This document shows, piece after piece, positions 1 to 62,108 of a stretch of DNA of 64,000 nt. This stretch comes from a virus (taxonomy: Duplodnaviria; Heunggongvirae; Uroviricota; Caudoviricetes): the IMG/VR virus record IMGVR_UViG_3300042270_000314. One strand, 5' to 3'. Positions within the stretch are counted from its first letter, which is position 1. Each line of letters opens with the position of its first letter. Under the pieces are notes generated by a model that did not search any database, had not been told where the DNA came from, and was given only the letters and a program-made list of their open reading frames with translations. Made by a program: the position numbers and the translations under genes.

Positions 1-178
1 GTATAAAAATATCTTTTCCATAAACATCAATTATTTCTTTAATATAAAAAGATGATGTGAAATAATTTTGTCAAAATTTTTCTGGTATTGAATTGTATTT
101 ACTATATTTGGCTCCAAAATAGTACTCACCTGTTAATTTTTGTGTAATTTTATAAACATAGGGTCTCACTTTATTCAT
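1..178 (-). CDS. GIY-YIG (Seg-like) homing endonuclease, 5' part only (runs off window); in-frame TGA at 71-73
   Basis: ATG at 178: MNKVRPYVYKITQKLTGEYYFGAKY...KF[TGA]QNYFTSS...IIDVYGKDIF. YVY/YFG motif; TGA at the Trp of the W-x-x-Y-F-x-S-S motif. Not in ORF track. Confidence 0.75.
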
Positions 179-197
179 TATTAGATCTCCTTCTATA

Positions 198-205
198 TAT
201 TTATA
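198..205 (-). promoter_or_regulatory. T4-type late promoter TATAAATA
   Basis: TATTTATA on + strand, intergenic, 20 nt upstream of ATG at 178. Confidence 0.6.
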
Positions 206-247
206 AAAACCAAAATACATAGAAGGTCATTCTAACCTCTTAAATGT

Positions 248-291
248 TTAGGGTGGCAAATAATTTTTATTTTAATCATTTGCCACCCTAA
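248..291. terminator. Hairpin, probable intrinsic terminator
   Basis: TTAGGGTGGCAAAT...ATTTGCCACCCTAA, 14-bp perfect stem just downstream of gene 314-805. Confidence 0.7.
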
Positions 292-313
292 TGTAAATAA
301 GTAATTTATTTAG

Positions 314-805
314 TTAATCAATTTCAATTACTTCAAAAACTGAATTATGCATTCCATAAATGTCAATATAGTCAGTACCCCGTTCAACACAAATAGATTC
401 CCTTAACATTTTTACAACAGTAAAAGAATTTTCATCATATTTGTCCCCTGTAAAATTCTCTAATGCTTCCAGAATTTGAAGTTGAAAATCATAATGAGAT
501 ACTGTCATATTCTTAGATAAAAATGTATTAATGAAGATTCTATTCTTAGAATATGTGGCAATCATTTTAAAGGTATCGAAGATTATAGCATACACACCAT
601 AATTTTTATTTTCCTTCTTAAGAATGTTAATGAATTTCTTCATGTATTCATAAACTTCTTTTTTGGTTTTACCAATTCTCTCAAGTCTGGAATCCATGGT
701 GTGTTCTTCACCAGCTTTCCCGGTATTCCAAAAAATCTTAACATTCTTATAGGGAAATTTGAACATGGGTTCGTGGCCCTCATTTATATATGAATAGAAA
801 TTCAT
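314..805 (-). CDS. hypothetical protein
   Basis: 163 aa ORF with upstream GGAG RBS; TAA stop. Confidence 0.6.
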   Translation of the reverse strand: MNFYSYINEGHEPMFKFPYKNVKIFWNTGKAGEEHTMDSRLERIGKTKKEVYEYMKKFINILKKENKNYGVYAIIFDTFKMIATYSKNRIFINTFLSKNMTVSHYDFQLQILEALENFTGDKYDENSFTVVKMLRESICVERGTDYIDIYGMHNSVFEVIEID

Positions 806-867
806 AAAAACTCCAATGTGTTTAAGTAATAATTTATTTATTCAAATTTCCCTATAATGTAAACAAA

Positions 868-1527
868 CTATTTCACAAGATGGAAATGGCGCTCGTAAAC
901 ATGAATTGAGCCCACTTGGTGAATGAGATCTCCAAGTTCCAATTCTGGATAATCAATCTTCAGATCTTTAAGAAGTTTATTATGTACATGTCTTGCCCAA
1001 TACAAATCGTTCTTGGCCCCAAATACTGCATCGCTCGAACGTTGATTAAGGATATAATGTAATTTATTGTTTCGAATAAGTGTCTGAACGGAATTAGTAC
1101 AAACGAAGTCGCTCATTCCATTTACATTATATTCCCATTGCATTGAAGGTCTTGTATAAATCATCATTGCTCTACGTGAATCTTTATCTCTACGTAATGT
1201 TCTTAGACAATTTTTATATTGTTCACCATTTTCTTTAGAATAAATTATCCAGCCATAATTTGAATTAATATATCCATTTTTATCACAAACTTGTCTCCAA
1301 ATCTGTGGGCATTTTGGAATATCATACACATTTAGTGACTGTGATTCATACCATTCTACTTCACGAGCAGCATAGTCCATATTAAGAGAACCAAAAATTA
1401 CTTCTTCATCTGCAATATAGGATTCACCAACTAATTCAATTGTTTTAACCCCGGTCTTATCAATGACAAACTCTTTATTTTTGAGTTTGTCAATAAAAGC
1501 GATTCTAATATCCTTAATAGTTTTCAT
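868..1527 (-). CDS. 42: dCMP hydroxymethylase (T4 gp42 homolog, thymidylate synthase fold)
   Basis: DKTGVKTIE, INSNYGW, DSRR..MIYTRPSMQ, GMSDFVCTN, KND, GSIHVYERHF match T4 gp42 as recalled; Asp (ND) at the cytosine-specificity position. Confidence 0.9.
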   Translation of the reverse strand: MKTIKDIRIAFIDKLKNKEFVIDKTGVKTIELVGESYIADEEVIFGSLNMDYAAREVEWYESQSLNVYDIPKCPQIWRQVCDKNGYINSNYGWIIYSKENGEQYKNCLRTLRRDKDSRRAMMIYTRPSMQWEYNVNGMSDFVCTNSVQTLIRNNKLHYILNQRSSDAVFGAKNDLYWARHVHNKLLKDLKIDYPELELGDLIHQVGSIHVYERHFHLVK

Positions 1528-1529
1528 CT

Positions 1530-2207
1530 CTAACCTCGTATAAGTTTTACAATTTCATATACTGATTCATCATATTTTTTACTCTGTACATCATTACAAC
1601 AATTAAGTTTTTCAATAATAGTATCTAGGGTTTTCATGGCCTTTTGTTCAATATCATCTTCTTTTAAAAAGATCAAAATTTCATTTAGAATCTCTTCTTT
1701 AGATTTATTTGTGACATCAATAATTTTCTTGTTAGGAATTTCTGTTATCATAACAGCTTCTTCAAACTTCTGTCTTTCAAAAATCTTATCATTTCTATCT
1801 GTAGAAAGTGATAACCCATCATCTCTTTCAAGAGTATTATCAATATTATCTCTAAGGAAAATTAAATAAACATCATTCCAAAATTTATGATTCATAAATT
1901 GATCTTCAAGCTTCCATAGATATGAAGGATTATACCCTCTATATCTAGAATACACATTTTCCCCAAGATGTGATCTATCACAAATTATATTAATGTTTTT
2001 GGAATGAAAATATTCAAAAGCTTCGAACATCTCTGTATAAAGTTGTTTTGAAAGTTTTCTAGCTTCTTCAGAATTTATAGATTTGACTCCTGAATAATGA
2101 AGGACATGAGCTGTTTTGTTTTGTTTATTCCAAAAATTAAAAAGAGCTTTTACATTAGTAGTTTTGAAACAATTGTCAAGACCTTCAAATAAAACAATTT
2201 TTGACAT
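1530..2207 (-). CDS. dNMP/thymidylate kinase-like P-loop protein
   Basis: FEGLDNCFKTT P-loop variant and ICDRSH motif; adjacent to gp42. Confidence 0.7.
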   Translation of the reverse strand: MSKIVLFEGLDNCFKTTNVKALFNFWNKQNKTAHVLHYSGVKSINSEEARKLSKQLYTEMFEAFEYFHSKNINIICDRSHLGENVYSRYRGYNPSYLWKLEDQFMNHKFWNDVYLIFLRDNIDNTLERDDGLSLSTDRNDKIFERQKFEEAVMITEIPNKKIIDVTNKSKEEILNEILIFLKEDDIEQKAMKTLDTIIEKLNCCNDVQSKKYDESVYEIVKLIRG

Positions 2208-2219
2208 ATAAACTCCAAA

Positions 2220-2248
2220 GGGGATTAGATAAAAATAATCTAATCCCC
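2220..2248. terminator. Hairpin, probable terminator
   Basis: GGGGATTAGAT...ATCTAATCCCC stem downstream of dut. Confidence 0.65.
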
Positions 2249-2270
2249 ATATTCTTAAATGTAAATAAGT

Positions 2271-2762
2271 TTAAACTCCTGTTGAACCAAATCCGCCAGA
2301 GCCTCGTGAAGTTTCTCGCTTCTCATACTCATCAATACCAATTTCCTCAGGCATACTACAACTAATTGGGATAAGAATAAATTGTGTAATCTTTTGCCCA
2401 TATTTAATTGTTTGCTCATTTTTTGAAACATTAACAAGATTGAGATGAAGCTCGCCTAAATAATCCGTGTCGATCACTTTTGCAAGAAGAGTAATTCCCT
2501 GCTTAGAAGCTACGCCAGATTTATCAAAAGCAATAAGTGCATGATAATCAGGGAACCATGTTTTAATTCCAGAAGGGATAAGAACCCTTTCAAGAGGAGC
2601 TAGATGAATACCCTCTTCGGTAATATATAGTCCAGGGTTCTTATCCCTTAGATCATTAACAAATTCTTTAGATCAATTTGGAACGAAAAAGTCGAGGCCT
2701 GCATCTGTAGGATTAGCACGATTGGGGCTCTTTACATCACGAACTTTACAAAATTTAAACAC
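2271..2762 (-). CDS. dut: dUTPase (trimeric); in-frame TGA at 2673-2675
   Basis: GTG start overlapping thyX stop. Motifs AGLDF, KSG, VIDTDYLGE and RGSGGFGSTG are in one frame only if TGA is read through. Confidence 0.9.
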
Positions 2763-3531
2763 TAAATTTTTCCTCCATTTCTTTTTTACTATTTTCTACA
2801 ATCTTATAAGCATTTTGTAAATCTGAAAGCTTTGGCATCATACCACAAGATTTTGCTTCCTTGCAAAATCCATTTTGAATACAGGCAGCAAATCCAAGCT
2901 TGTTATCTTTAAAAAATGTTGGTGCGATATCTCGACACATTGAAGACATCTTTTCAGCCATTTCTCGAATTTCCCACTGAGCACGCTTACACATTCTTTT
3001 AGCAAAAAATTCTCCAAGAGAACGAATATTCATTGTCATAACAATATTAGTAGTACAAGCATTAGGAAGAATAAATCGAGCATCTTCTGCTGGGATTCCG
3101 TTATTAGTAAGTCTTGTATAAAATTCCATAATATTATTCATGAAATTGTTATATGTTTCATTTAGAAACTTATTCTTTTGAATTGTATATGGAGTTACAT
3201 ATGTAAAATTCTTTTCATTTACATATCTTTGACTCTTTTGAGAATAACTTGCAATTCTATGGCGTACAAGTTGATGTGTTAATGCTCGACTAACACCCTC
3301 AATTAGAAATGTAAAAGAAACATGTTCAGCAACAGAATGATGACCAGAAGAAAGTACGTGCTTAATAGTTTTCTTCATTGTTTCAACTTCAGGATATTGC
3401 TTATTCATTGGATTAAAAGAATCATTATAACATTGAGCTAACGCAGTGTACACAACTTTATCTGGGGAATCTTCCTCACTATAAGTTTGTGTTATATTTG
3501 GAGTAGAATATCCAATTAGAGTTACTTTCAT
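2755..3531 (-). CDS. thyX: FAD-dependent thymidylate synthase ThyX
   Basis: GHHSVAEH, SRALTHQLVRHRIASYSQKSQRY, EDARFILP, AQWEIR motifs. Confidence 0.93.
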   Translation of the reverse strand: MKVTLIGYSTPNITQTYSEEDSPDKVVYTALAQCYNDSFNPMNKQYPEVETMKKTIKHVLSSGHHSVAEHVSFTFLIEGVSRALTHQLVRHRIASYSQKSQRYVNEKNFTYVTPYTIQKNKFLNETYNNFMNNIMEFYTRLTNNGIPAEDARFILPNACTTNIVMTMNIRSLGEFFAKRMCKRAQWEIREMAEKMSSMCRDIAPTFFKDNKLGFAACIQNGFCKEAKSCGMMPKLSDLQNAYKIVENSKKEMEEKFSV

Positions 3532-3532
3532 A

Positions 3533-3790
3533 TTATTTCTCCAATTCATTAACAATGTCATTATACATATTCTTCAAACCTTCGAGATACTTCTTATATC
3601 CAACATCGGTGATTGTTACCGATTCATCGAGGGTTTTCATAATCTCAATAGCCATAATTGAATCTAATTTTTCTGAAAGTTTTTCAATATCAGAGGGAGA
3701 CTCAACATCTCCCTCTAGTGATACTGTAACCTTCAGAGGGGCAAATGGAACTGTAGGAATTCCAATAGACCTTTCTAAAGATACTTTCAT
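3533..3790 (-). CDS. hypothetical protein
   Basis: 85 aa ORF packed in operon. Confidence 0.55.
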   Translation of the reverse strand: MKVSLERSIGIPTVPFAPLKVTVSLEGDVESPSDIEKLSEKLDSIMAIEIMKTLDESVTITDVGYKKYLEGLKNMYNDIVNELEK

Positions 3791-3971
3791 TTTTTAATCC
3801 TTTTTAGTAGGTTTTCTTACATATGAAAGAAAGGGATTATCTGTTTTTTCAATACCAACAATATTTCTTCCTTCAAGATTGATGTCCTTTTCAAGATAAA
3901 TTTTCTTACAAATCATGCACTGATATGTAACGGGATTATTAGTTTTAATAGGACGAAATTCCTTTAGTGCA

Positions 3972-5837
3972 TTACATAGACATCTGATATTCATTAAAAA
4001 ACTCCTCATAGGTTACAATTTTAATATTATTCTTTTTTGCTTTTTTCATTTTAGATGAAGAAGAATTTAAATCATCACACACCAAAATTTCTGTTTCATT
4101 GGAAAAATTAATAATTTCAAAGCCATGTTCCTTAAAAAGCTTTTCAAGTTCTTTGCGAGAAGCAGGGCCCTTTCCTGTAACTGTTACCTTTACGACATTG
4201 GAACTTTCCTCACTTAGAGTTTCCTCATTAAAAGTTAAACCATAGTTTTGACAGATACGATAAACAAGAGCAACGTTTTCAAGACTGTCGACAACCGATT
4301 TGAATATAGATTTACCAAAGCCTGGAATACTTGTAAATAGATTTTCATTAAGAGAAAAAATACTTTCAAATTTTTCTTTCGAAGTTAAAGATTTATCTAA
4401 AGAATCAATAAACTTCTTTGTGTTTTTTGTACCAAAAAAGGGTACACCTACTGCTGCAAGCAAAGTTTCAGGCTTTACATTTTTGATAGACTTATGAATT
4501 TCATCAATGATCATTGAAGCACTGGTTTCTCCAAATCCATCTCTATTCATAATATTATCAACTGTTAATTCAAAAACTTCAGTTAAATCTTTAACTTTGA
4601 GATTTCTAAAAGTTTGAGAAGAAATATTTTCAGCACCAAGTACTCTAAAAAAATATTCTAAAAACCCAATTACTTGTTCATAGCATTTTTTATTTTTACA
4701 AATAAGATCAACGCCCTTCATCTCAAGTTCAGATCCACATGAAGGGCAATTCTTTGCCATATCCATTTTAGCAGCGGGGATTGTTACTTCAATAATCTGA
4801 GGAATGATATCACCAGATTTTACAATCTTTACTTTTGAACTAATTCCAATCTTGTTGTCTAAAACATACTTAGCATTATGAGCAGTGGCTTTAGAAACAT
4901 TTGTACCGTCTATTGGCACAGGAGATTTGAAAATTGCAATTGGAACTACTCTTCCTGTTCGAGAAACATTCCATTCAATATAATCAATTTCAGTTTCAAT
5001 TCCTTCAGAATTTACTTTAAACGCAATCTTATTCTCGGGTCGTTCTACATTTTCTCGCTTATGATTTGTTGGGCAAATAACAAGACCATCTAAATCATAA
5101 CAGTAATCAATCTTCATTGAAACCAAAATACTTTTAAGCTCTTCAACTTTAAGTTCTGAAAGAAGGTGATATTCTACTACATCAATACCCATTTCTGTAA
5201 GTTCATTAAAATCAACAATTAAAGATTCATTAGTTGAATTAATATATTCATAAAACAAACAATCAATGTTTTCACAACCTTCAACACCATCCTTATTAAG
5301 GAGACCGGCAACACCATTGCGAGTATTTGAAAATCCTAGAGAAGCAAAGATATTTTTGTTTAAAAGACATTCACCGCGAAGATCGACCCGGTTTTTGTTT
5401 TTGATTTTCTTTGGGAGAAACTTCAAAGCTTTATGTGTAATATCAAATCCAAAGTGGCCATCCCCACGAGTCGTTGCTAAAACAAGTTCTCCATTTTCAT
5501 ATCGTACAAAAATAGATGCACCATCGAGTTTTGGCATAATACAAAAAAATTCATCACTTGAAAATTTCTTTATCCAAGAAGAAATTGTATCGGTTTTAAA
5601 CTTCTTTAGAGAGCCAAGAACATAATCATGCTTAATCTTTTGAGATTTTGTTGGAACTGGAGCGCCAACTGATTGAAAATATTCATTATCGGGGTAAAGC
5701 ATTTGAGCTTTATCTTTTAATTCATCATAAAATTCATCTGAGAACATCGATGTTTCAGAATTATAATATGCATTGTCTGCATCTTTTAGCAATTCAATGA
5801 TATCATCTTCACACATTAAATTTAACTTATCTAACAT
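3972..5837 (-). CDS. ligA: NAD-dependent DNA ligase
   Basis: KLDG adenylation motif, TRGDG, RGE, VSRTG, CPSC zinc finger, C-terminal BRCT-like region. Confidence 0.93.
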   Translation of the reverse strand: MLDKLNLMCEDDIIELLKDADNAYYNSETSMFSDEFYDELKDKAQMLYPDNEYFQSVGAPVPTKSQKIKHDYVLGSLKKFKTDTISSWIKKFSSDEFFCIMPKLDGASIFVRYENGELVLATTRGDGHFGFDITHKALKFLPKKIKNKNRVDLRGECLLNKNIFASLGFSNTRNGVAGLLNKDGVEGCENIDCLFYEYINSTNESLIVDFNELTEMGIDVVEYHLLSELKVEELKSILVSMKIDYCYDLDGLVICPTNHKRENVERPENKIAFKVNSEGIETEIDYIEWNVSRTGRVVPIAIFKSPVPIDGTNVSKATAHNAKYVLDNKIGISSKVKIVKSGDIIPQIIEVTIPAAKMDMAKNCPSCGSELEMKGVDLICKNKKCYEQVIGFLEYFFRVLGAENISSQTFRNLKVKDLTEVFELTVDNIMNRDGFGETSASMIIDEIHKSIKNVKPETLLAAVGVPFFGTKNTKKFIDSLDKSLTSKEKFESIFSLNENLFTSIPGFGKSIFKSVVDSLENVALVYRICQNYGLTFNEETLSEESSNVVKVTVTGKGPASRKELEKLFKEHGFEIINFSNETEILVCDDLNSSSSKMKKAKKNNIKIVTYEEFFNEYQMSM

Positions 5838-6436
5838 GTTTTAGTATCCTCACTAATAAAAAATTGTCCAAAAATTTGGGTTTTAAATTGTTCTTCTGAT
5901 AACCTGTTTTTAAAGTCATCATAATAAGAATAAATTGTTGTGTTGGGGTCTGTTAAAAAACTACCATATAAATATTTAAAGTCATTTTGTTTCTCTGTAT
6001 CGTGGAATTCAACATCCATATCAATATAGTCCAAACATAAATTACTAATTTGTTTTAAATAACGACAAAGATCTATAAGTTTTTTATTATATCTTCTAAC
6101 AGGACTAGTTTTAATATAGACGGTATCTTCTACATATTTTACATATTCATCATATAAAATGTATTGTTGTGTTTCATTATATAGAAAAAATTCATCTAAA
6201 AATAGATTACTACATTTACATATTCTACCACGAGTATTGGACCTTATGTTGTAAATAAATTCTTGAATTGTAAAAACATCGATACCAGCATCATTATATA
6301 CCCTTTTACATGGGTGTGTTGGCACTACAACATTAATGGGGTGTTGTAAATTATGATTTAGTTTATTATATAAAGAAATAAACGAAGCTGTCTTCCCAAA
6401 TTGCCTGGGTAAAATTTCAAATTCGCATTTTTTCAT
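5831..6436 (-). CDS. P-loop-like hypothetical protein
   Basis: PRQFGKT and LFLDEF resemble Walker A/B. Confidence 0.45.
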   Translation of the reverse strand: MKKCEFEILPRQFGKTASFISLYNKLNHNLQHPINVVVPTHPCKRVYNDAGIDVFTIQEFIYNIRSNTRGRICKCSNLFLDEFFLYNETQQYILYDEYVKYVEDTVYIKTSPVRRYNKKLIDLCRYLKQISNLCLDYIDMDVEFHDTEKQNDFKYLYGSFLTDPNTTIYSYYDDFKNRLSEEQFKTQIFGQFFISEDTKTC

Positions 6437-6630
6437 TAGTACACCTCATTAGGTAGATGTTTTTGGATTGCAACTAATATTGATTTGGTATCATTCAGCA
6501 ACACCATATCACTGACATGTGTATTACCCTCAATTACTCTTTGAATAGCATCAATATTCTTTTGAATTGATTCTTGAGTCGGTTGTTTATAGGGATATGG
6601 TCCTGACAAGAGTTCAATACATACTTTCAT
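6436..6630 (-). CDS. hypothetical protein
   Basis: 64 aa ORF, TAATG-coupled on both sides. Confidence 0.55.
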   Translation of the reverse strand: MKVCIELLSGPYPYKQPTQESIQKNIDAIQRVIEGNTHVSDMVLLNDTKSILVAIQKHLPNEVY

Positions 6631-7058
6631 TACTTACCTTCCAATTTCCAAGAATTTTCATAATTATCTTCTGAAAGATCTCTTCCCTTTACAAAGGTAA
6701 TATTACCCTTTCTATTAGAAAAGTAAACCTTATTAATACCAAGAAATTTTAAAAATCCCTGACACATAGGGCACGGGTAAGCCAAAGAAAACTTCCCTGA
6801 ATTGTTTATCCGAACAATCAAAATATCAGCATTCTTAGCTTTATTCCAATGTTTTAAATTAAGAATTGCGGATTGTTCAGCATGAATCGTATTATCAAAA
6901 TATTTGTATTTGGGGTGAATTTTACCATTACCGCGAATTTCATTGTGTCCAGACGATAATATTCGAGGTCCCTTAAAAACCACAGCTCCCATCTTATACG
7001 GATGATACTCCGACGATCGAGCTTCTTCTATAGCTCTTTCAATTATTCCTAAATGCAT
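6630..7058 (-). CDS. cytidine/deoxycytidylate deaminase family protein
   Basis: HAE and PCPMC zinc-binding motifs. Confidence 0.85.
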   Translation of the reverse strand: MHLGIIERAIEEARSSEYHPYKMGAVVFKGPRILSSGHNEIRGNGKIHPKYKYFDNTIHAEQSAILNLKHWNKAKNADILIVRINNSGKFSLAYPCPMCQGFLKFLGINKVYFSNRKGNITFVKGRDLSEDNYENSWKLEGK

Positions 7059-7071
7059 ATCTTGCTCTCAA

Positions 7072-7596
7072 TTATCCATTAAATGTTCCTTCTAAGATTT
7101 TATTAAAAAGTTTAACTACTTTACATTCAAGATCATACTTGGAACCATTATTATCAATAATATAATCATATCTATAGTTTTTAACATTAGAATCTGCATC
7201 ATTACTGAATACTTTATTATTATTACGTTGTATAAGGATTGTAAACACAGGGGTTGGTGAGTTCAAAAGACTTTCTTTAAAGATTTCAATTTCTTTAGGT
7301 TCTCGAACATGAAAAAAACATATATAGGGAGATTCAAAATCTTTCAAAGAACTTAGCATATAAAGGAGTGAATGATTATAGAATTTACTTGCAATCATTT
7401 TAAGTTGATGGAGAAATTCCCGGTCCGTTTCATCTTTTGATCCAGTCCACCCTAATAGTTTTGCAGCTTCTCTGACTTTATCAATAGATGAAACATTATA
7501 GATATTAAAATATTTTGAAAAATTATTTCTAACAAAATCAACAACTGTATCTTTACCCGAGGTACCGGAACCATTAATAATAAAAATGTAATTCAA
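7072..7596 (-). CDS. P-loop nucleotide kinase-like protein
   Basis: INGSGTSGKDT Walker A. Confidence 0.65.
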   Translation of the reverse strand: MNYIFIINGSGTSGKDTVVDFVRNNFSKYFNIYNVSSIDKVREAAKLLGWTGSKDETDREFLHQLKMIASKFYNHSLLYMLSSLKDFESPYICFFHVREPKEIEIFKESLLNSPTPVFTILIQRNNNKVFSNDADSNVKNYRYDYIIDNNGSKYDLECKVVKLFNKILEGTFNG

Positions 7597-7598
7597 AT

Positions 7599-8279
7599 TT
7601 ACTTCCTCCGAATTTTTGTAATAGACTTGAGGAGAATTCTCTTTTCTTCTCCATTATAATTGATAAAAGCACAGCGAGCATTTGTTCGAAAAAGTTCATA
7701 TTCCACTCCACGATAGGTAACGATAAACTTACCCATATAATACTTATGGGGTTCAATACCTAAAGATTCAAATGTTACCTTAGAAGAATTTTTAGGTGTA
7801 CTTTTTCTAATCTTCTTAAGTTCATCTTTCCAATATTTAATTTCCCACCTATAGAGATCATTAATACGAGATCTTAAAATTTCAAATTTTCCATCGAGAT
7901 CTTGGAGCGAGCGATTAATTGTAAATATACCAGATCCATTAGTAAAATAAACTGTACTCTTATAAGACTTAATAAACCAAACTTCGTGAATACCTCTATT
8001 ATCCTTAAATCTAGCTCTCATTCCAGATTTAAATATTGTGCTATGTTTTGCAAAATCAAATTTTGCCCAAAGATTATCAGATTTTTTCTGACGATATGTA
8101 TGTTGAGTTTTCTGTTCTCCTTTGATCAATCCCCATTGAATGGCAAGCCTCATAAGTTCAGAGGGGTCATTCTTATTCTTCATGATCTCAGTAACTTTTA
8201 CCCCAGCATCCTTAATATTAGGATTCAGATCAGGATGAACCATTTTGATCAATTCTTTGTAATTCATTTCAAACCTCAA
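7599..8279 (-). CDS. protein with short N-terminal J-domain-like segment
   Basis: YKELIKMVHPDLNP HPD motif. Confidence 0.55.
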   Translation of the reverse strand: MRFEMNYKELIKMVHPDLNPNIKDAGVKVTEIMKNKNDPSELMRLAIQWGLIKGEQKTQHTYRQKKSDNLWAKFDFAKHSTIFKSGMRARFKDNRGIHEVWFIKSYKSTVYFTNGSGIFTINRSLQDLDGKFEILRSRINDLYRWEIKYWKDELKKIRKSTPKNSSKVTFESLGIEPHKYYMGKFIVTYRGVEYELFRTNARCAFINYNGEEKRILLKSITKIRRK

Positions 8280-8303
8280 TTGTTTAATTGATTTGATGAA
8301 TTC

Positions 8304-8332
8304 AGATTATCAAAATTCAAATACTTTGTAAA
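8304..8332 (-). promoter_or_regulatory. sigma70-type early promoter
   Basis: TTTACA-17 nt-TAATCT with extended TG. Confidence 0.7.
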
Positions 8333-8477
8333 CTATTATTTTATTGTTTCACCAATCAATATAATTCTATATACTATACCCTCCGTACCAAGTTAATATA
8401 TTAACTAACCTATTCCGGATAAGATGTAAACAGGGAAAGTTAAAAATATGGTGGTATTTTTACACTATATGGAAATA

Positions 8478-8690
8478 AGTCCGGAAATCTCGAGATTCTG
8501 AGGGTTTTCCGAAAGCTTAATTATTTCAATAACTTAGAAATCCGCCAAAATCTTAGTTTTCCTAATCATTTCAATACCTTACGAGAAAATCTCGAATTCC
8601 ACTAAAAAAACGTAATGTTTTATACATCATTTTCTTAGGATTTCTAAGATTTCTAAAAAGTTTAATTATTTTAATAACTTATTTTTCCAT
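8478..8690 (+). repeat. Dispersed ~200 bp intergenic repeat, copy A
   Basis: Reverse complement of 24885-25078 (GTCCGGAAATCTC.AGATTCTGAGGGTTTTCCGAAAGC.TAATTATTTCAATAACTTAGAAATCC.CCAAAATCT). Confidence 0.85.
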
Positions 8691-8760
8691 ATTTACATTT
8701 ACTTTCCACCAAATTAAATATGAATAAGAAGAACATATTTAAGAGGAGAATCTAAAATTA

Positions 8761-10086
8761 ATGTCAGTTTTATCTCAAGAGTATTTGGAAAAAGTCATTT
8801 TAAAATCGTTCATTGAGGACAAGCATTTTTGTACCCTGTTGTCTTCAGAAACAGAAGAACGATTTTTTGAAAATCTAGAAGCATCTGAAATCTTTACTAT
8901 TGTAAAAGAATATTATCAACAATATATAGAACTTCCTACAAAAGATATCATTATTAATTCAGCTAAGAAGCCAAATGAAATTAAAAAATATTTAGAAGAC
9001 GTTGAGCAAGTAGAAGTATCGAATCAGATGTTTCTATATGAGCAGACTGAAAAATGACTTAAGGAGTCTGCTTTCAAATACGCTATTATGGATAGTGTTG
9101 ATCTTGTTAAAAAGAAACAAGATATTTCTAAAGCTCGGGAATATATTGAAAATGCTTTAACAAAAACTCTAAAGAAGCAAATTGGGTTAGATTATTGGGG
9201 TGATCTGTCTGAACGACTAAAAAGGATGTTTTCCGCTGAAAATGAAAGACTTCCCACGTATTTTCCTCAATTAGATGAATATCTAAATGGTGGATTACCT
9301 CCTTATACTCTTTCAGTAATTGTAGCTGCGATGCATGCTGGAAAATCCAACCTTATGGTAAATATGGCTGTTCGCCAGATGATGAAAGGTCATAATGTTG
9401 TTTATTTGAGTTTAGAAATGGCTGAAGATGAATTAGCCAAACGTGTAGATGCTCAATTAACCAAATTAGATATTAATAGGATTTATGATTCTAAAAAGAA
9501 AGAATTTCTTACTAATCTCAAAAGTGTAAAAACTGGAGGTGAAGGACGACTTCTTTTCAAACAGTTTCCCACGGGTACAGCAAGCGTCAATGATTTTAGA
9601 AGTTACCTATATGAACTTCAAATGAGGGATATTAGAATTGATTGTATTTATGTGGATTATTTAAATATTATGAGACCGACGGCTTCAAGTGGAGATGGAA
9701 ATTTATATACAGATGTAAAGAAAATCGGAGAAGAACTTCGTGCAATGTCATACATCTTTAAATGTCCTATTGTTACAGCAACTCAAACGACACGACAAGG
9801 TGTAATTTCTGAGATTGGTGAAATTTCATTTGCAATGCTTTCAGAATCTATTGGTACTGCGGCAACAGCAGATTTTATTATGGTTCTTGGATCAGATAGT
9901 GATTCTCTTGTTTACCAGAATGAAATCTTTTATAAAATACTTAAAAATAGATTGGGCGGACGTGTGGGTGAGATTGATAAAATGTATGTAGATAATCGAT
10001 CATTAAAAATGTATGATTCAGTTGAACTAGATCAGTGGATTTCCGATGCAACAATTAGCGGTGCTAACACACAAATGGCGAATTAG
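8761..10086 (+). CDS. 41: Replicative DnaB-like helicase (T4 gp41); in-frame TGA at 9055-9057
   Basis: Two track ORFs join in frame via TEK[TGA]LKESAFKYAIMDS, matching the gp41 TEKW motif; Walker A AAMHAGKS, VDYL, TATQ, KNR.GG. Confidence 0.9.
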
Positions 10087-10111
10087 AATAAATAAACAAA
10101 AGGAGTTTATT

Positions 10112-10345
10112 ATGTCAGAGAAAATTAATGATATGGAAGAAATACCTCTTACAGGAACAAAGGTCCCAGTAAATTTTGTTTTTGAATCTGAAGAGGGTGA
10201 AGATGAAGAATTCACAATTGAAATGGACTCCCAGGTATTTTATATTCTGTGTCAAGAAGCAATGAGAAAAGGTATTCGAGTAGAAGATTTCATTCTAGAG
10301 TCTTTACTTGAATATATGGAGGAACCTAATGGAGACCGTAGTTAG
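10112..10345 (+). CDS. acidic hypothetical protein
   Basis: ATG with AGGAG RBS. Confidence 0.55.
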   Translation: MSEKINDMEEIPLTGTKVPVNFVFESEEGEDEEFTIEMDSQVFYILCQEAMRKGIRVEDFILESLLEYMEEPNGDRS

Positions 10346-10409
10346 TATGAAGGATGTCCTTCTTACATGAATTTCAAAAAATAAAAAATATGCAACAAAT
10401 AATCTAAAA

Positions 10410-10610
10410 ATGCATAAAGATATTTTTGATATTCTATTTTATTTACTTTTGGAAGAATTTATTGACAGAACAGACAATGAAACTTTAGAAGAATTAATAG
10501 ATAATGTATGTAGTAAATATCAAAGAAGCGTTATTTGTGAATCCACAATAGAACAATTTAAACAAATTATTATGAATAATAGAAAAATGTTTACAGAGGA
10601 CGAAGTTTAA
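10410..10610 (+). CDS. hypothetical protein
   Basis: 66 aa ORF. Confidence 0.45.
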   Translation: MHKDIFDILFYLLLEEFIDRTDNETLEELIDNVCSKYQRSVICESTIEQFKQIIMNNRKMFTEDEV

Positions 10611-10774
10611 TGGTTGTTCAATCTATTGCAATGTTTTTTATTTTATTATCATTACAAACTTCTTATAATGTGGTTTTTCTAGGACTAAGTAAAGAATATA
10701 AAATGATACCTGGTTTATTTTTTATTTTGGGTATTTGCATTTTTGGTTTGAGTTTATAATTATCAGGAGAATAC

Positions 10775-11161
10775 ATGGGAAAAGACGTGTTAATTTCATT
10801 TACATTTGAGGGTCAGGAACAATATTTTAAAGTAAATAAAAATGATTATAATGTCGGTGAAGAATTAGTAAAATTTATTTGCTATTTAGAAGATCATTTT
10901 ATGTCAGATTATTTTAAGAGTCTATTAAAAAATAAAAATTTCAATTTTAATGAAGCATTCTGCATTACAAATCTAAAACAAAAAACAAATGTTGAAGAAG
11001 TTCCTTCTAAAGAAGGTGTATATTTTTGCGAATATATTGTTGATTTTGATTGTGATTATCTTTGTAGAATAAAAAATTCATCAATTGGGTTTAGGAATTA
11101 TGAAGCATATCCCTTTGAACAATTGGCTGAGTACCCTTATTTAAATACATTTCAGGAGTAA
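10775..11161 (+). CDS. hypothetical protein
   Basis: 128 aa ORF with AGGAG RBS. Confidence 0.55.
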   Translation: MGKDVLISFTFEGQEQYFKVNKNDYNVGEELVKFICYLEDHFMSDYFKSLLKNKNFNFNEAFCITNLKQKTNVEEVPSKEGVYFCEYIVDFDCDYLCRIKNSSIGFRNYEAYPFEQLAEYPYLNTFQE

Positions 11162-11164
11162 GTT

Positions 11165-12097
11165 ATGTCTACTATTATGTTTGATTTTGAGAATTTATCT
11201 CTACGTTGTTTTTATGGTAATAAAGATGTACAACCAGAATCGGAATCTCCAAATTATGACTATTGGGAATATATTACTTTCAACTCTATATATAGAATGC
11301 TTTATAAGGAAAGAATCCATGAAGTAATTCTTGCTTTAGATTCTCAGTCTTGGAGAAAAATCGTCTATCCCCATTATAAGGCCCATCGCAAAAAGAAAAA
11401 AGAAGAATCAAAAGTAAATTGGGAGCTATATGCTCAGAAGAAAGAGGATTTTTTAAATAAGATTAGAGAATACCTTCCTTTCAAGGTTATTTCTGTTAAT
11501 AGAGCTGAAGCCGATGATATTCTTGGCACCCTTATCAATTATAAGAAAACTGAAAATGCTATCATTGTTTCTATGGATTGCGATTATATGCAACTATCAG
11601 ACAAATGCAGAATCTACAGTCCCATTAAAAAGGAATTTGTTAAATCTAGAGACCCTGAGAAGTTCCTTCTTTATTCATCAATTCTTGGACAAAAGAAGGA
11701 TAATATTTTTAATGTGAAGACCCCATGGGATTGGCCAGAAGAAAAGAAAAAACCAGCATTTGGTGAAAAGGGGCTTGATAAGATTATTTCCGAAAACAGG
11801 TTAGAAGAATTTCTTAAGACCCCAATTCCCTATGAATTTACTTATGTCTCACAAGAAGGTGAAGAAACGGAATATAAGAAAATTGTTACTCCAGAAGAAT
11901 TTTATAATATTAATAGAAAAATTATAGATCTAAGTTATACACCACAAATTATGGTTAAAAAAACATTAGATGTATATGAGAATTATAATATGAATTCTGA
12001 TCCCAATAGATTATATGAATTTTTTAGAATTCAGAATTGGAAAGAAGCTATAGAAAATTTTACGCAAATTGAGTCAAAGCTATTAGAATTATATTAA
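11165..12097 (+). CDS. rnh: RNase H / 5'-3' exonuclease (T4 rnh-like)
   Basis: SWRK..YPHYKAHR, AEADDI, SMDCDYMQL, GQKKDNI. Confidence 0.88.
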   Translation: MSTIMFDFENLSLRCFYGNKDVQPESESPNYDYWEYITFNSIYRMLYKERIHEVILALDSQSWRKIVYPHYKAHRKKKKEESKVNWELYAQKKEDFLNKIREYLPFKVISVNRAEADDILGTLINYKKTENAIIVSMDCDYMQLSDKCRIYSPIKKEFVKSRDPEKFLLYSSILGQKKDNIFNVKTPWDWPEEKKKPAFGEKGLDKIISENRLEEFLKTPIPYEFTYVSQEGEETEYKKIVTPEEFYNINRKIIDLSYTPQIMVKKTLDVYENYNMNSDPNRLYEFFRIQNWKEAIENFTQIESKLLELY

Positions 12098-12133
12098 ATA
12101 ACTTTATTAACATAGTTTGAAAAGGAGATTATA

Positions 12134-56743: not shown

Positions 56744-57877
56744 TTATTGAAACATTTTTTTGAAAAATTTTAATTCTTGTTTTTCTTTATCTTTTAACTT
56801 TTTACCGTTAATAATTACATCATATTCATAATAAATATAAACACTTGGATCTTTAAGATTTAAAGAGCTAATTGTAATATCAAGAATCTTTAGGGTGCCC
56901 TCATTGGTTTTAACAACATCTCCAATTTTAATGTTTCTTGGGATATCAACACCCTCATCTAACTCACCAAATTCGGATTCACTAAGATTTTTTGTCATTT
57001 CTTTGTATTTGTCTAAAAGATCTTTATTCTTACTAATTTCAGTTGACTTCATAGCATATCGTGCTGTCTTAGCGTTTCCAAGATGATATAATGTTTTCTT
57101 TTCATCTCCTCGTTCTTTAGATGCAATTGCTTTTTTCATGTGCTGAGCAAAAGTAGCCTCATCTAAATCTTCTGTTAATGCTTTAGGGTTCTTCTTGAGA
57201 TAATCTTCTAGCCACTCAGCAATTTCAGAAGCCATCATGTCCTTACCACCAGGAACAGGGATTCTAGTTTTGTCTCCATCTTCCTTATCAATCATAACAA
57301 AAACGTTATTGCCAACTTTTTGAGTTTTTGCAATAGATTTACCATTAATGGAAAGGGAACCCTGAACCCCTGTTGTAACTTTGAATCCTTCATCAAGATC
57401 TTTTTCATAAGATGATTCATTTAAATTATAATCAACATTTGGAAAATCTTTTCATAATGATTTTAATTTATTAGAGTCGGTAAAAACTTCGCCAGGCACC
57501 CACTTATTAGAGGAGTCAAATGTATATACTTTAAATTTTATTTTACTATTAGTTCTAAATACAATAACACATTTATCATTATTTTTAGGAGTTTCAATAT
57601 TACCAGTAAGATGGGCAATTTTGAATTCTCTTTCAGATAATCCAATATCTTTTTTTACCGCCAAAACTATAAGAGATGCTTTAGATTCATTCAAATCTTC
57701 TGTAATATAAACAACAATTCGTTTATTGGTTTTAGTATCTCTCAAAGTGGCATGTTTTCCTACTTTAAGATCCTGTTCCGCTTCCCAATATCCATCTTCA
57801 ATTTTCTTTTCTACCTTCTTAAGACTCATCTCCTTTGTCTCAGAAAGATAGTTTTTTAACTTTTGTGCAATGTCCAT
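56744..57877 (-). CDS. putative internal head (ejection) polyprotein, 377 aa; in-frame TGA at 57452-57454
   Basis: Two track ORFs join in frame (KSL[TGA]KDFP); modules separated by LSE/LNE/LDE/LTE linkers. Confidence 0.55.
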
Positions 57878-58455: not shown

Positions 58456-58738
58456 TTTTAATTTCTCCTTTAATATCAACAAAACTATCAGAGACACTAG
58501 CACCTTTGAAAGTCTTTTTTATAAAATTATATTTATTTCTTGAGAGTATAGGGGAATTTACTTTGTATCTTTTTAATTCTCCTAATATATTTCTGCTCTC
58601 AAGTAAACTCAAAATCTTTTCTCTTTCTTCTGATAACCTAACAAAATCTTCTGATTCACCTTTTCTTTCCTCTAATCGTTCTAAAATGTATAAAAGAGTA
58701 AAATCGAAATACTCATTTAAATCAACTTTAATTTTCAT
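58448..58738 (-). CDS. hypothetical protein
   Basis: 96 aa ORF. Confidence 0.5.
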   Translation of the reverse strand: MKIKVDLNEYFDFTLLYILERLEERKGESEDFVRLSEEREKILSLLESRNILGELKRYKVNSPILSRNKYNFIKKTFKGASVSDSFVDIKGEIKNE

Positions 58739-59198
58739 GATTATCCTTTAAGGTTGAAAGAACCTCTCGTAAAGTTTTTGCTTCATCTGGTTTTACCCAT
58801 GACCTATAAATCTTGGATCTAATATTGTTATTAAGTCATTTGTCTGATTCAAGAACACCCAGAGAATATAAGGCCAACTCTTCTGAATATGCCAGAGATC
58901 CTCGACTTGAAACAAAACATAAAATTTCCCTTGTGAAATCGTCAGTTCCACCTGCTTCCTTTATTCATTCCTTAATCTGGGGCGAACTTGACCAATATTT
59001 TTGTCAATCACTCTGAACTCTAACTTTTTTCTTTTTTCCATTGACTGTTTTCTTAGCAGCATTGGTTAAAATTTTTCTACCAATATACTTCTTCCCAGTT
59101 GACTTTTGGGTGATTACATACACAAATCCGAAAGCCTTTTCAAATGGAATATCTTCTTCAGTTAGAATCTCTTTTCCCTGATATATCCAATTACTCAT
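58728..59198 (-). CDS. GIY-YIG-domain protein conserved in T4-like phages; in-frame TGA at 59004, 58965, 58836
   Basis: GFVY.IT..STGKKYIGRK, QSD[TGA]QKYWSSS (family ESDW..YWGSS), F.REIL, VLESD. Confidence 0.8.
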
Positions 59199-59249: not shown

Positions 59250-59268
59250 GGAGCCATATAGACTCCCT
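59250..59268 (-). terminator. intrinsic terminator after hsp20
   Basis: GGGAG...CTCCC stem followed by a T-run on the - strand. Confidence 0.6.
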
Positions 59269-59291
59269 AATATTTAATAATTTTTTTTAAA

Positions 59292-59618
59292 TTACATAAT
59301 CTTAAGTTTAGATTTATCTTTTGTTTTTGTTGTTTTTGGAAGTTTAAAGAAAAGTACACCTGCCATATATTCTACAATAATGTCTTCTTCTGTATAATCT
59401 GAATGTACACGAAAATTTACAGTGGTATCAAAATGTTGTCCATAAATTTCTTTTTCACCATCTACAAAGATTTTACCATTTTTGAAAGTTACTTCAAGAT
59501 CTTCCTTCTTAAAATAGGGGACTTCTAAAGCATATACATAAAATTCATCATCTTCAAAATAAACCAAAGATTTTCTGGCATCAAAAATAGAATCAAAAGA
59601 AGTTTTATATGTGAACAT
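59292..59618 (-). CDS. small heat shock protein (Hsp20)
   Basis: LEVP.FKKEDL.V.F..G...V.G...Y..GVL...LPK. Confidence 0.8.
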   Translation of the reverse strand: MFTYKTSFDSIFDARKSLVYFEDDEFYVYALEVPYFKKEDLEVTFKNGKIFVDGEKEIYGQHFDTTVNFRVHSDYTEEDIIVEYMAGVLFFKLPKTTKTKDKSKLKIM

Positions 59619-59731
59619 AAGTTCCTCCTAAAAATTATTTTTCTATAATATAATCATTGGTTTTTAAATGTAAATAGGGGAGCAAGAAAAAAATCAAGAT
59701 CCCTATTTGTTATTCTAAGTTATTGAAATAA

Positions 59732-61075
59732 TTAGGGATATATAAACAATTTATAATTATATCCAAGTTCCTCTGTTGCTTTTTGTTTTAATATATTGAT
59801 ATATATATCTGCATCATATGTGTATTTAGATTTTGTTTCAATAATGAGATTATCTTTAGGAATATAAAAATCAGGAAAATATCTATGTGTCTTTTTATCT
59901 TTATCGCTAAAATATCAAATCTCTGGCATTTCACATCTTTCATATAAAATTTCATCTTCAGAATATTCATTTAATAAAAATTCAAATGTTTTATTTTCAT
60001 ACCCTTGAAGTTTTATTATTTTACCCGATGGAAGTGTAAAATCATGTCATGAATTCTTGTACCCCTGACCAATGTTATTTTCAAAATAATGTTGTAAAAA
60101 TCAGGGCGTACCAAATCGTTTAAAGTTAGTTTCTTTACATTTTTCTATATATTCGGGTGTCTGAGAAAAACTTTCAAAGCCATATCTATCAATATTGGTT
60201 TGTTTAAACTGGTCCCTATTATTATAATTCTCATCACCATATTTCTCAAGCTTAGTGACCTTTCCTTTATCTCTAAATTTCTGAATGGATAGGGTTTGCT
60301 CTTGGCCATATCTTTCAAGATTAGTCTCTTTATACTTATCTCTATTGTTATAATTCTCATCACCATATTTCTCAAGCCTTGTCTGCCTGTTCTTTTCCAT
60401 GTTGTTATAATTCTCATCACCATATTTCTCAAGCTTAGTGACCTTTCCTTTATCTCTAAGTTCTTTAACTTGCAATGTATATTCAACACCATATTTATTT
60501 AAATTAGTGACCTTTCCTTTATCTCTAAATTCTTTAACTTGTAAAGTATGCTCAACACCATATTTCTCAAGGTTGCCTACTTTAATTTTTTCTTTTACTT
60601 CTTCAGATTGACTCACGTTTTCTACACCATATTTTTCCAAACATGTTTGTTTTGATTTTTCAATATTATTATAATTTTCATTGCCATATCTTTCAAGTTT
60701 GGTTTTTCTAATTTTATCTGTATTTGTGCAAAAACCATATCTCTCTATTTTTGTAGCATTCGCCTTTTTATTTGCGGCTGTTCTATCAACACATAGTTTT
60801 GAACAATATGTCTTATAACCACCTGAGCCAAATCCACAAAATTTTAAAGCCTTACCACATGTAAGGCATCTTTTAATACTGTCAATATGATGATATATAT
60901 GATAAAATCTTTGAATTAAAGTGGGATTAATCTCATTAAGAAAGGATGTTAACTTTAATATTTCACTATATAGATCATAACCAAAAATCTCTATAAATTT
61001 ATCTTTTTTAAACACATATGGGTTAATCGCGCCAGATTTACTAATGGCCTTTAAAATTATTTTATTGATATCCAT
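59732..61075 (-). CDS. putative homing endonuclease: KYG repeats plus C-terminal PD-(D/E)XK domain; in-frame TGA at 60101, 60047, 59915
   Basis: About 20-aa LEKYGDENYNN repeats; after read-through LQGYE...YFPDFYIP...IIETKS. Confidence 0.8.
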
Positions 61076-61096
61076 TATTTCTCCAATTAAAAAAGA

Positions 61097-61130
61097 AGAT
61101 ATGAAGGATAAACGTTTATCCTTCATATCT
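61097..61130 (-). terminator. Perfect 34-bp palindrome, probable terminator of gene 32
   Basis: AGATATGAAGGATAAAC|GTTTATCCTTCATATCT followed by TCTTTTTT on the - strand. Confidence 0.75.
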
Positions 61131-61137
61131 ATTTATA
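61130..61137 (-). promoter_or_regulatory. T4-type late promoter of the endonuclease gene
   Basis: TATAAATA abutting the palindrome. Confidence 0.55.
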
Positions 61138-61142
61138 TATTT

Positions 61143-62108
61143 TTAATTAAAGTTTTCTAATTCAGCAAGAAGATCGGCTTCAGACAAATCATCTGAATCG
61201 GAAGATTCTGTAACTTTCTTTTCTTCTTTAGGAGCCTCATCCTTCTTTGTTTCAGTTGGCTTCTTTTCTTCCTTAGGAGCCTCAGTCTTTTCAGAAGGAG
61301 CAGAAGATTCAGAAGCATATCTTTCAAAATCCTTGGCAATAAGATCCCAGAACATTTCATCCTTCATAGCCTTAATGAGATCTGACATAGACTTCATATT
61401 TTTCTTTAGATACTCATTGAGATCTACTCGAGTTTCCATAAGCTTATCAATTTCTTCATCTGAACCGATAGCACTTGGACGACGAGCAAATGTGCTCATA
61501 GAATATTCGGGGAAACTCTGATTCTGGCCTCCGGACTGTGTTCCTACCTTAATGATAAAATTATAACCATCAGGACCCGGATCAAAGATTGCTGCACCTA
61601 GACCATTACGTGTATCTTTAATTTCTTCAGCGAGTTTCTGTTCAAGTTTAGAAGGAAATTCATAAAGAAGAACCTTACCTTCCTGTTTAGATTCATCATC
61701 AGCAGCCTTACCAGCATCTCTGGGATCATATGCAACAAAAACATTAGATACATACTTCTCTTTACGCTTAAGCTTCCTGGCTTCATTCTTATCGCTTTCA
61801 GAGCCCTGAAAAAGCTTATTAACTACTGAACAGATAGGACAAGGGTTGTTAAAATCCTCAGTCTTGGGGCACTGCATATAGACCCATTTTTCACCCATCT
61901 TTCACATATGATAGAAAATCTTCTTATAAAATCCTGAAGCGGGGTCGGGAAGAAATCGTACTTCATATGTCTTAGGATTATCTGAAGGCCCTTTTTCTAG
62001 AGACTTTCACTTCTTGTCAATAAAAGCCCCACCAAATGTATTCTGTGTTTCATTTTTCTTTTCTTCTGTGAACTCTTTGAAGAGATCTTTACTTACCCAC
62101 TTGCTCAT
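61143..62108 (-). CDS. 32: single-stranded DNA-binding protein (T4 gp32); in-frame TGA at 62007 and 61902
   Basis: DKK[TGA]K...VRFLPD, CP.T....PCPIC, RK..Y..NV, YEF, FDP...G.NF.IK, acidic tail. Confidence 0.88.

Follow-up and report, generated by a model that had tools for sequence, protein, structure and literature searches.

The sequence analysed here is a stretch of 64,000 nucleotides (henceforth the window) of the virus record IMGVR_UViG_3300042270_000314, in which many predicted genes are crossed by in-frame TGA codons; the reading of these codons as tryptophan (Trp) is the subject of this report. The window corresponds, in reverse complement, to positions 57983-121982 of one linear virus contig of 133,051 bp and 31% GC (G000), is part of a T4-like phage genome of ~165 kb from wastewater, and has near-identical counterparts in more than 12 wastewater metagenome runs. 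Pfam and PDB matches identified a T4-type core consisting of a gp41-type helicase, gp32, family-B DNA polymerase, primase and RNase H, along with an NAD-dependent ligase, dUTPase, ThyX, dCMP deaminase, Rnl1, Rnl2, a T4-type beta-glucosyltransferase (BGT), a GH108 endolysin, a SegE GIY-YIG endonuclease and TnpB. Adjoining contigs carry the gp44 clamp loader, the gp45 clamp, gp19, gp25, gp6 and gp5. With both replication and morphogenesis core genes of T4 type, the phage is classed on predicted gene content as a T4-like (Straboviridae-type) myovirus; among cultured phages it is closest to cyanomyophages, with ~33% helicase identity. The main comparator, referred to as G001, was IMG/VR UViG 3300028601_000019 (164,754 bp, ~70-85% protein identity to G000).

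In-frame TGA codons in the window

When open reading frames (ORFs) were bounded by TAA and TAG only, 55 in-frame TGA codons were counted across the 31 longest ORFs of the window. Five of these fall in the spurious ORFs 33265-33660 (plus strand) and 10064-10255 (minus strand), the former being rejected in favour of the real gene at that place, the TGA-free 33286-33672 (minus strand), and several others belong to the first 12 codons of their ORF, a stretch in which the start is uncertain. In round figures, the longest-ORF count gives ~50 TGA in ~28 ORFs. Inside homologue alignments, 39 TGA codons were located in 21 genes; ORFs of at least 100 amino acids (aa) contain, past codon 12, 39 TGA against 172 TGG codons. 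Both tallies match a preliminary description of the window, made from its letters, which had given about 39 TGA in about 20 genes. Pfam likewise agrees with the identities proposed there for the helicase, gp32, dUTPase, SQD1-like epimerase, GH108 endolysin, Rnl2, TnpB and SegE GIY-YIG genes, and the five TAATG stop/start junctions (14021, 16292, 18185, 25840 and 38642) are all present. The genes carrying TGA are given below, with the T4 late-promoter consensus TATAAATA entered where it occurs.

2271-2762, minus strand: dUTPase (PF00692); one TGA (2673-2675, aa 30), also TGA in G001 (74% identity).
6630-7079, minus strand: dCMP deaminase (PF00383); TGA at codon 4 (7068-7070), start uncertain; the column is AAT in G001 and the alignment begins at aa 2.
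8761-10086, plus strand: gp41/DnaB-type helicase (PF03796); one TGA (9055-9057, aa 99).
10308-10610, plus strand: hypothetical gene; one TGA (10368-10370), kept in G001.
12134-12316, plus strand: small conserved ORF; two TGA (12251-3, 12284-6) and no TGG, both TGA kept in G001 and in the related contig L036.
13545-18185, plus strand: TGA-dense glycan operon (Pfam) of two hypothetical genes, a TGA-free small ORF (14817-15107), an SQD1-like epimerase (15108-16292), a GT-like gene (16292-17554) and a SAM methyltransferase (17556-18185); 14 TGA (13599, 13908, 14096, 14648, 15327, 15714, 16218, 16781, 16871, 16874, 17519, 17577, 18099, 18144); TATAAATA at 13468 and 17446; TAATG junctions at 14021, 16292 and 18185.
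25840-26358, minus strand: Zn-ribbon-like ORF; two TGA (25927-9, 25897-9), supported by ORF continuity and the TAATG junction only; no homologue found in G001.
30995-32918: four small ORFs, weakly supported, with one or two TGA each (31001-3, 31411-3, 32518-20, 32595-7, 32901-3).
34221-34675, minus strand: two small ORFs with TGA at codons 3-4 (34440-2, 34667-9), starts uncertain; the first of these columns is TTT in G001.
36285-36614, minus strand: hypothetical gene; one TGA (36564-6); the G001 orthologue has TGA at other columns.
38642-39208, minus strand: lysis pair, GH108 endolysin with PG_binding_3 domain (PF05838, PF09374); TGA at 38996-8, 38972-4 and 38669-71; TATAAATA at 39237, before the gene.
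38229-38642, minus strand: lysis pair, ORF downstream of the endolysin; TGA at 38622-4 and 38241-3; TAATG junction at 38642.
41065-42246, plus strand: TnpB (IS200/605 type; PF07282 spans the TGA); one TGA (42184-6, aa 374); TATAAATA at 41027.
42353-42568, minus strand: candidate small ORF with two C-terminal TGA (42383-5, 42365-7); no homologue found.
46434-46679, minus strand: small ORF, a candidate from the ORF list only; TGA at codon 8 (46656-8).
48672-49619, minus strand: RNA ligase 2, Rnl2 (PF09414, PF18043); one TGA (48801-3, aa 273).
56744-57877, minus strand: hypothetical gene; one TGA (57452-4), AAA in G001.
58728-59198, minus strand: SegE-type GIY-YIG homing endonuclease (PF19835); three TGA (59004-6, 58965-7, 58836-8); TATAAATA at 59237.
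59732-61126, minus strand: DUF7487 homing-endonuclease-like gene (PF24308); three TGA (60101-3, 60047-9, 59915-7) and no TGG; a G001 paralogue has TGA at two of the three columns; TATAAATA at 61137.
61143-62150, minus strand: gp32 single-strand DNA-binding protein (PF08804); two TGA (62007-9, 61902-4); TATAAATA at 62208.

Statistics drawn from the ORFs of the window carry little of the argument. All 103 ORFs called under code 4 end in TAA (73) or TAG (30), a count that holds by construction, since TAA and TAG were the bounds that defined the ORFs. No TGA in the window was found to terminate a gene demonstrably, and TAA or TAG closes the TGA-free genes. Three or four C-terminal TGA (32901-3, 31001-3, 42365-7/42383-5) are ambiguous and may be stops; that at 32901-3 aligns exactly with the stop of the G001 orthologue. 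The proposed comparison of coding density did yield a gain, from 74% ORF coverage under table 11 to 85.5% under table 4, but this gain is not discriminating because coverage also rises with TAG (80%) or TAA (89%) read as sense. Counting single stops flanked on both sides by long open stretches gave no separation of TGA from TAA and TAG, and a symmetric test, in which any stop was read as sense inside G001 alignments, failed and was set aside: wrong-frame ORFs of similar DNA align too. A codon-usage score of the stretch following the stop (TGA 0.35, TAA 0.10, TAG -0.11) was mildly supportive only. ORF length and coverage alone do not separate TGA from the TAA and TAG controls, and the decisive evidence is comparative.

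Tryptophan at the TGA positions

Orthologues of the two genomes were aligned codon by codon. The 111 TGA columns of G000 that could be aligned are occupied in G001 by TGA (64), TGG (23) or other codons (24, mostly for Tyr, Phe, Leu, Asn and Arg, with one GGA). G000 TGG is matched in G001 by TGG 194 times, by TGA 44 times, and then by Tyr and Phe codons. Genome-wide, 67 interchanges of TGA and TGG stand against one with GGA, and the remaining replacements at TGA (Y, F, L) follow the same pattern as those at TGG. Within the window, 21 TGA are common to G001, nine window TGA are TGG in G001, and 13 G001 TGA are TGG in the window. Given this interchange, TGA behaves as a synonym of TGG. Cys codons are nearly absent from the TGA columns (one TGT), and Gly is confined to the single GGA among the 111 columns, with none in the window; because Gly is essentially missing, code 25 (TGA = Gly, as in phages of Absconditabacteria and Gracilibacteria) is excluded. 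The earlier preference for Trp over Gly is upheld by these counts: Trp or aromatic residues occupy the TGA columns, and non-Trp residues do not dominate them.

Homology alignments run straight across the TGA positions, and several of these coincide with conserved tryptophans. In the SQD1-like epimerase, aa 203 aligns with the W of the KAWG motif of Arabidopsis SQD1 (PDB 1QRR), and columns 164 and 410 of the GT-like gene are W in 13 of 13 homologues. Across the glycan operon the TGA columns hold TGA (9), TGG (4) or AGA (1) in G001, while L036 and a further contig, L037, match them with either TGA or TGG. Three PDB homologues have W opposite aa 79 of the endolysin, and the five lysis-pair columns are TGG (3), TGA (1) and TTG (1) in G001. 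The three SegE columns are W in 119 of 120 (column 65), 58 of 120 and 92 of 120 homologues, and standard-code T4-like contigs (L038-L040) have TGG at 8 of 9 SegE columns. In gp32, aa 48 is W in RB69 gp32 and TGG in contigs L005 and L006; aa 83 is TGG in G001 and Phe elsewhere. Among the conserved-Trp positions named in the preliminary description, those in SQD1 (KAWG), GH108 (FWD) and SegE hold; that in the helicase (TEKW) does not, its aa 99 column being TGG in G001 and Tyr in T4 gp41 (PDB 8DUE), hence aromatic and not a conserved Trp. At aa 146 the G001 helicase has a TGA of its own where the window has TGG. Where conservation is lower, the residues opposite TGA are aromatic or vary. The alignment of Rnl2 to T4 Rnl2 (PDB 2HVQ) crosses the TGA, which stands opposite Leu, and the TnpB codon lies inside the RuvC-III 'DADxNA' motif, at a column that is F or Y in Cas12f/TnpB structures. 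In conserved genes, in-frame TGA aligns with the Trp of homologues, as code 4 (TGA to Trp) would predict, and the alignments support the interpretation that UGA is translated as tryptophan in this phage, as a Trp sense codon.

Two of these genes show further features. The helicase gene directly follows a copy of a repeated cassette described below and is intact in the window, whereas the G001 copy (G001:C1:100844-102953, L008/L009) is interrupted by ~760 bp between alignment residues ~353 and 342, possibly an intron, an intein or an inserted homing endonuclease. The TnpB copies of G001 (95% identity) and L036 (94%) retain the TGA. The TnpB element is 94-100% identical at different genomic places (window 41065-42246; G001 ~161.5 kb; L036 12604-13785), whereas identity among the other genes of these phages is just 45-85%. 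By its look, this is an active insertion sequence that moves within the recoded phage population. Its end sequence is the break point of several assemblies.

The same data bear on the view that there is no true reassignment, the TGA being leaky stops read by host tRNA-Trp(CCA), pseudogenes, assembly errors, or codons for Gly, Cys or selenocysteine (Sec). UGA is the leakiest stop codon and tRNA-Trp its near-cognate reader, and no suppressor tRNA was found. Against this, single genes hold as many as 4 TGA within the window and 10 in the rest of the genome, for which low-efficiency read-through is insufficient. The TGA codons show no +4 context bias relative to TGG codons, so programmed read-through is not suggested either, and TGA is kept, or swapped with TGG, across genomes under purifying selection. 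Errors in the consensus, a possibility raised beforehand, were checked with contigs independently assembled from four sequencing runs (one of them not flagged as a possible source of the contig): over window positions 1-20000 no differences were observed outside the intergenic repeat 8492-8602, and no variant fell on any TGA, with coverage of up to ~216x in one of the other runs. Consensus error is excluded because the four assemblies agree and 64 TGA positions are common to the second genome. Sec, Cys, Gly, pseudogenes and consensus errors were rejected on the codon tally, the assembly agreement and the lack of context bias, which leaves the absence of reassignment very improbable.

Distribution of TGA among gene classes and relatives

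The preliminary description had presented the recoding as spanning the whole window, which is not the case: ~70% of the window genes are TGA-free and readable under table 11, and how far TGA is used varies strongly with the class of the gene. Of the Trp codons, 18% in the window and 27% genome-wide are TGA, while the A-ending share in the Lys, Glu, Gln, Leu and Arg codon pairs is 70-81%; from this difference, TGA is still selected against in most genes. Heterogeneity among genes is marked, with a chi-square of 262 against a maximum of 196 in 20,000 permutations, and 24 genes have at least four TGG and no TGA where 10 are expected. Two TGA-free regions provide a contrast.

19010-24669, minus strand: block of small leftward genes with 0 TGA and ~28 TGG, headed by the cassette 24841-25083; the L036 orthologues are also all TGG.
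49673-52228, minus strand: family-B DNA polymerase with 0 TGA and 11 TGG, here and in G001.

Other TGA-free genes of the window include the primase, RNase H, ligase, Rnl1, Dam and BGT. The TGA-rich groups, on the other hand, each lie just downstream of TATAAATA: the glycan operon, the lysis pair, SegE, the DUF7487 endonuclease and gp32. Across G000, TGA is present in 15 of the 19 genes with TATAAATA no more than 120 nt upstream versus 39 of 115 others (p = 3e-4). Only six of 56 same-composition permutations of the motif occur upstream of at least eight genes, and the association of TATAAATA is the strongest among these. A scan for sigma-70 promoters was uninformative for defining early genes (111 sites versus 112 expected). 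TGA appears concentrated in putative late and lysis genes with a standard-compatible set remaining, the pattern of code-4 phages, where gene timing is read from the motifs.

This partition persists between genomes. Of the conserved Trp codons that remain, lineage-specific TGA/TGG changes have altered 52.5% in genes already sharing TGA and 13.9% in other genes (odds ratio 6.9, p = 1e-9); because the changes fall in genes that already share TGA, the partition is a stable property of the gene. The same gene-class pattern was observed in L036, and L036 and L037 are recoded in the same glycan operon. In a sister lineage (L002/L024, L004/L031 and L030; IMG/VR contigs 3300035528_000041, 3300035050_000078 and 3300035544_000047) with 60-66% DNA-polymerase identity, TGA occupies five of seven polymerase Trp columns that are all TGG in this phage; there the recoding extends to core replication genes. 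In-frame TGA is missing from the outgroup relatives, whose identity is 46% or less. The relatives form a graded series from standard-code outgroups through partly recoded genomes (27-39% TGA) to the sister lineage with a recoded DNA polymerase, in line with the evolutionary path proposed by Borges et al.

Phages of standard-code hosts that use code 4 have been described in the Agate and Jade clades and in some crAss-like phages (Borges et al., bioRxiv 10.1101/2021.08.26.457843; Nat Microbiol 2022; also PMC10746230), and TGA is enriched in their late and lysis genes (bioRxiv 10.1101/2021.08.26.457843). TGA-to-Trp recoding is therefore already known from gut phages, and this phage fits the code-4 kind. 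It shares with them in-frame TGA at Trp columns, low GC, no TGA that demonstrably ends a gene, concentration of TGA in late, lysis and accessory genes with variably recoded replication genes, unequal degrees of recoding among close relatives, and a suppressor tRNA that often goes undetected. Unlike those clades, the present lineage is T4-like (gp41, gp32, gp43, gp44/45 and T4 baseplate genes), comes from wastewater and not the gut, carries TGA also in mobile elements (SegE, DUF7487, TnpB) and in the glycan operon, and has no tRNA(UCA), RF1 or Trp-tRNA synthetase (TrpRS) despite a nearly closed genome. No description of a T4-like code-4 clade was found in the literature searched. The crAss-like and Lak phages with TAG read as Gln (code 15; Peters et al. 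2022, PMC9523058; Yutin et al.) resemble it in that a stop codon has become a sense codon in some regions while other blocks keep to the standard code, but differ in codon and amino acid and usually carry tRNA-Sup(CUA), sometimes with RF2. UGA is also Trp in bacteria that natively use table 4 and in the phages of these bacteria (Mycoplasmatales, insect and protist endosymbionts; PMC13695967). There, UGA supplies the majority of Trp codons in every gene, RF2 has been lost and the chromosome encodes tRNA-Trp(UCA), whereas here TGA is a minority codon that follows gene class, in a phage that targets peptidoglycan.

This last comparison raises the alternative that the host itself natively uses table 4, in which case no switch would be needed and the uneven TGA would reflect history or codon preference. 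Such a host would accommodate three observations: the phage lacks a decoder, a release factor and TrpRS; no TGA demonstrably serves as a terminator, TGA-free genes included; and TGA is found in some replication genes and in the DNA polymerase of the sister lineage. It would not readily account for TGA forming only 18-27% of Trp codons beside A-ending synonyms at 70-81%, and TGA is not the majority Trp codon in all gene classes, as it is in native table-4 organisms. Whole gene blocks avoid TGA in three related genomes, stably per gene, and the outgroups have no in-frame TGA. The endolysin, a GH108 enzyme with a peptidoglycan-binding domain, indicates a host with a cell wall, and the table-4 bacteria listed in PMC13695967 are wall-less Mycoplasmatales, tiny endosymbionts and two high-GC gut Eggerthellaceae genera. 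A search of bacterial genomes with TnpB, aimed at the host, found no relative. A standard-code host is favoured by the peptidoglycan endolysin, the range of table-4 bacteria and the TGA-avoiding gene blocks; the most likely inference is a host with the standard code in which decoding changes in the course of infection, and a native table-4 host is quite improbable.

Some features of the region lie outside the TGA-carrying genes. An intergenic cassette is repeated at window 8280-8760, 24841-25083 and 48578-48663, its copies being 80-85% identical and heading divergent or leftward gene blocks; the copies collapse in short-read assemblies, and this gives elevated depth, together with variants, at 8492-8602. 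At 19002-19022, a GC-rich hairpin that bears T-runs on either strand resembles a bidirectional terminator and sits exactly between the convergent glycan operon (end 18997) and the leftward block (end 19010). A strain variant having the first gene of G000 (L050; JGI 3300042258 contig Ga0451648_011958) encodes, downstream of that gene, a 716-aa HsdM/N6_Mtase/Methylase_S fusion resembling type I/IIG restriction-modification proteins, which G000 does not have at that place.

Search for a UGA decoder and the proposed switch

The preliminary description had suggested a search of the rest of the genome for tRNA-Trp(TCA) and release factor genes, and this search did not supply the expected decoder. 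ARAGORN reported no tRNA gene in the window, 10 in G000 and 7 in G001, and all matches of the Rfam tRNA model were among those of ARAGORN. Relaxed, intron-allowing and mitochondrial ARAGORN modes returned only scattered, non-syntenic noise. In neither G000 nor G001 did any intergenic candidate have a 5-bp stem closing a YU-UCA-R loop, and an Rfam E-value scan of a large non-coding RNA island (G000 43354-44356) revealed nothing tRNA-like. The code-change machinery that is frequently, though not universally, encoded by recoded phages (tRNA-Sup(UCA), sometimes with RF1 and TrpRS) was found in neither genome. The window does encode a 116-aa, GGQ-only RF-1-domain protein (45416-45766, minus strand; PF00472, phrog_3122), which is TGA-free and sits among RNA-repair genes (RlaP at 44241-45260, a phosphatase-like ORF and Rnl2). 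The absence of this protein from G001 makes a role as the switch unlikely; the protein may instead be a ribosome-rescue factor of the ArfB/PrfH type that has no part in the recoding.

CheckV completeness was 58% for G000 and 69% for G001, but synteny points to more complete genomes. The ends of G001 map to G000 48,682 and 50,189, where G000 is continuous and tRNA-free; with both ends abutting in G000, G001 is a nearly closed circle missing ~1.5 kb. Beyond the end of G000, 23 kb could be walked through other assemblies (L041, L045, L046). This segment is the homologue of G001 59.5-82.7 kb, contains tail and baseplate genes, and yielded no tRNA with ARAGORN; the walk could go no further than a TnpB or repeat boundary at which every assembly is broken. 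The tRNAs of G000 and G001 were too diverged for a pattern search in public collections, and an IMG/VR search with the gene adjoining the tRNA cluster gave no match.

A phage-encoded decoder might nevertheless have been overlooked, either as a tRNA-Trp(UCA) in the unrecovered sequence (~9 kb of G000, beyond the breaks that TnpB or repeats cause in the assembly, and ~1.5 kb of G001) or as a non-canonical tRNA or other RNA beyond the reach of ARAGORN and Rfam. Suppressor tRNAs were detectable in only 35% of code-4 phage genomes, and undetected non-canonical tRNAs were suspected (bioRxiv 10.1101/2021.08.26.457843). The tRNA sets of G000 and G001 also differ and evolve fast, the completeness estimates are low, and small pieces are missing since all contigs break at repeats. 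However, two genomes independently lack such a decoder, their gaps are covered by each other or by L041, L045 and L046 without any tRNA, and the stem-loop, relaxed ARAGORN and non-coding island scans described above were all negative. An overlooked decoder is accordingly considered unlikely.

The explanation preferred here, with a probability of about 0.62, is that of a T4-like phage of a standard-code host in which UGA is read as Trp, partially and by gene class, with decoding switched on in infection. UGA, not demonstrably a terminator, is read as Trp, and TGA has accumulated in genes behind T4-type late promoters (TATAAATA), in the lysis pair, the homing endonucleases, TnpB and the glycan operon, as well as in a few replication genes (gp32, helicase, dUTPase). 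Small and probably early gene blocks and most replication enzymes (DNA polymerase, primase, RNase H, ligase) have TGG only. If the host is a standard-code bacterium and UGA decoding is switched on during infection, TGA would then gate the translation of later genes, in the manner proposed for other phages with code 4. The data show that TGA is a Trp sense codon with a use partitioned by gene and that a canonical decoder gene is lacking; we infer the temporal switch, the standard-code host and the molecule reading UGA.

Several observations weigh against this explanation. In the 133 kb of G000 and the 165 kb of G001, neither ARAGORN nor the Rfam tRNA model nor a custom scan for anticodon arms detected a tRNA(UCA), or indeed any Trp tRNA, and neither genome contains a PCRF-domain release factor (RF1/RF2) or a TrpRS/class Ib synthetase. 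TGA is present in genes needed at the onset of replication (helicase, gp32); together with the TGA of the sister polymerase, this does not fit a strictly late switch, and decoding would have to be available by the start of replication. The association of TATAAATA with TGA is weaker in G001 (p = 0.05), and the assignment of genes to early or late classes draws on motifs and on analogy with T4.

The lack of canonical machinery admits a more specific and tentative proposal, which we consider possible but doubtful, namely that the T4-like clade makes UGA Trp without encoding a suppressor tRNA, a release factor or a TrpRS, by a switch mechanism that has not been described. One candidate for such a switch would be a phage protein that inactivates host RF2, turns host tRNA-Trp into an efficient reader of UGA, or does both; another would be a decoder RNA other than a tRNA. 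Either would need to act early enough for the helicase and gp32.

The codon tally of TGA and TGG, the independent-assembly check, the gene-level persistence test, the graded series and the near-closure argument on the absence of a decoder are new here, and TGA-to-Trp recoding is extended from gut clades to a T4-like lineage. Annotation with table 11 breaks about a quarter of the genes of this phage, including the endolysin, gp32, the helicase, the sulfoquinovose-type glycan operon and the mobile elements, and as a result gene catalogues and completeness estimates for such wastewater phages will be wrong unless code 4 is tried. With a nearly closed genome that contains no known code-change gene, the lineage is a good place to study how a phage re-reads UGA.

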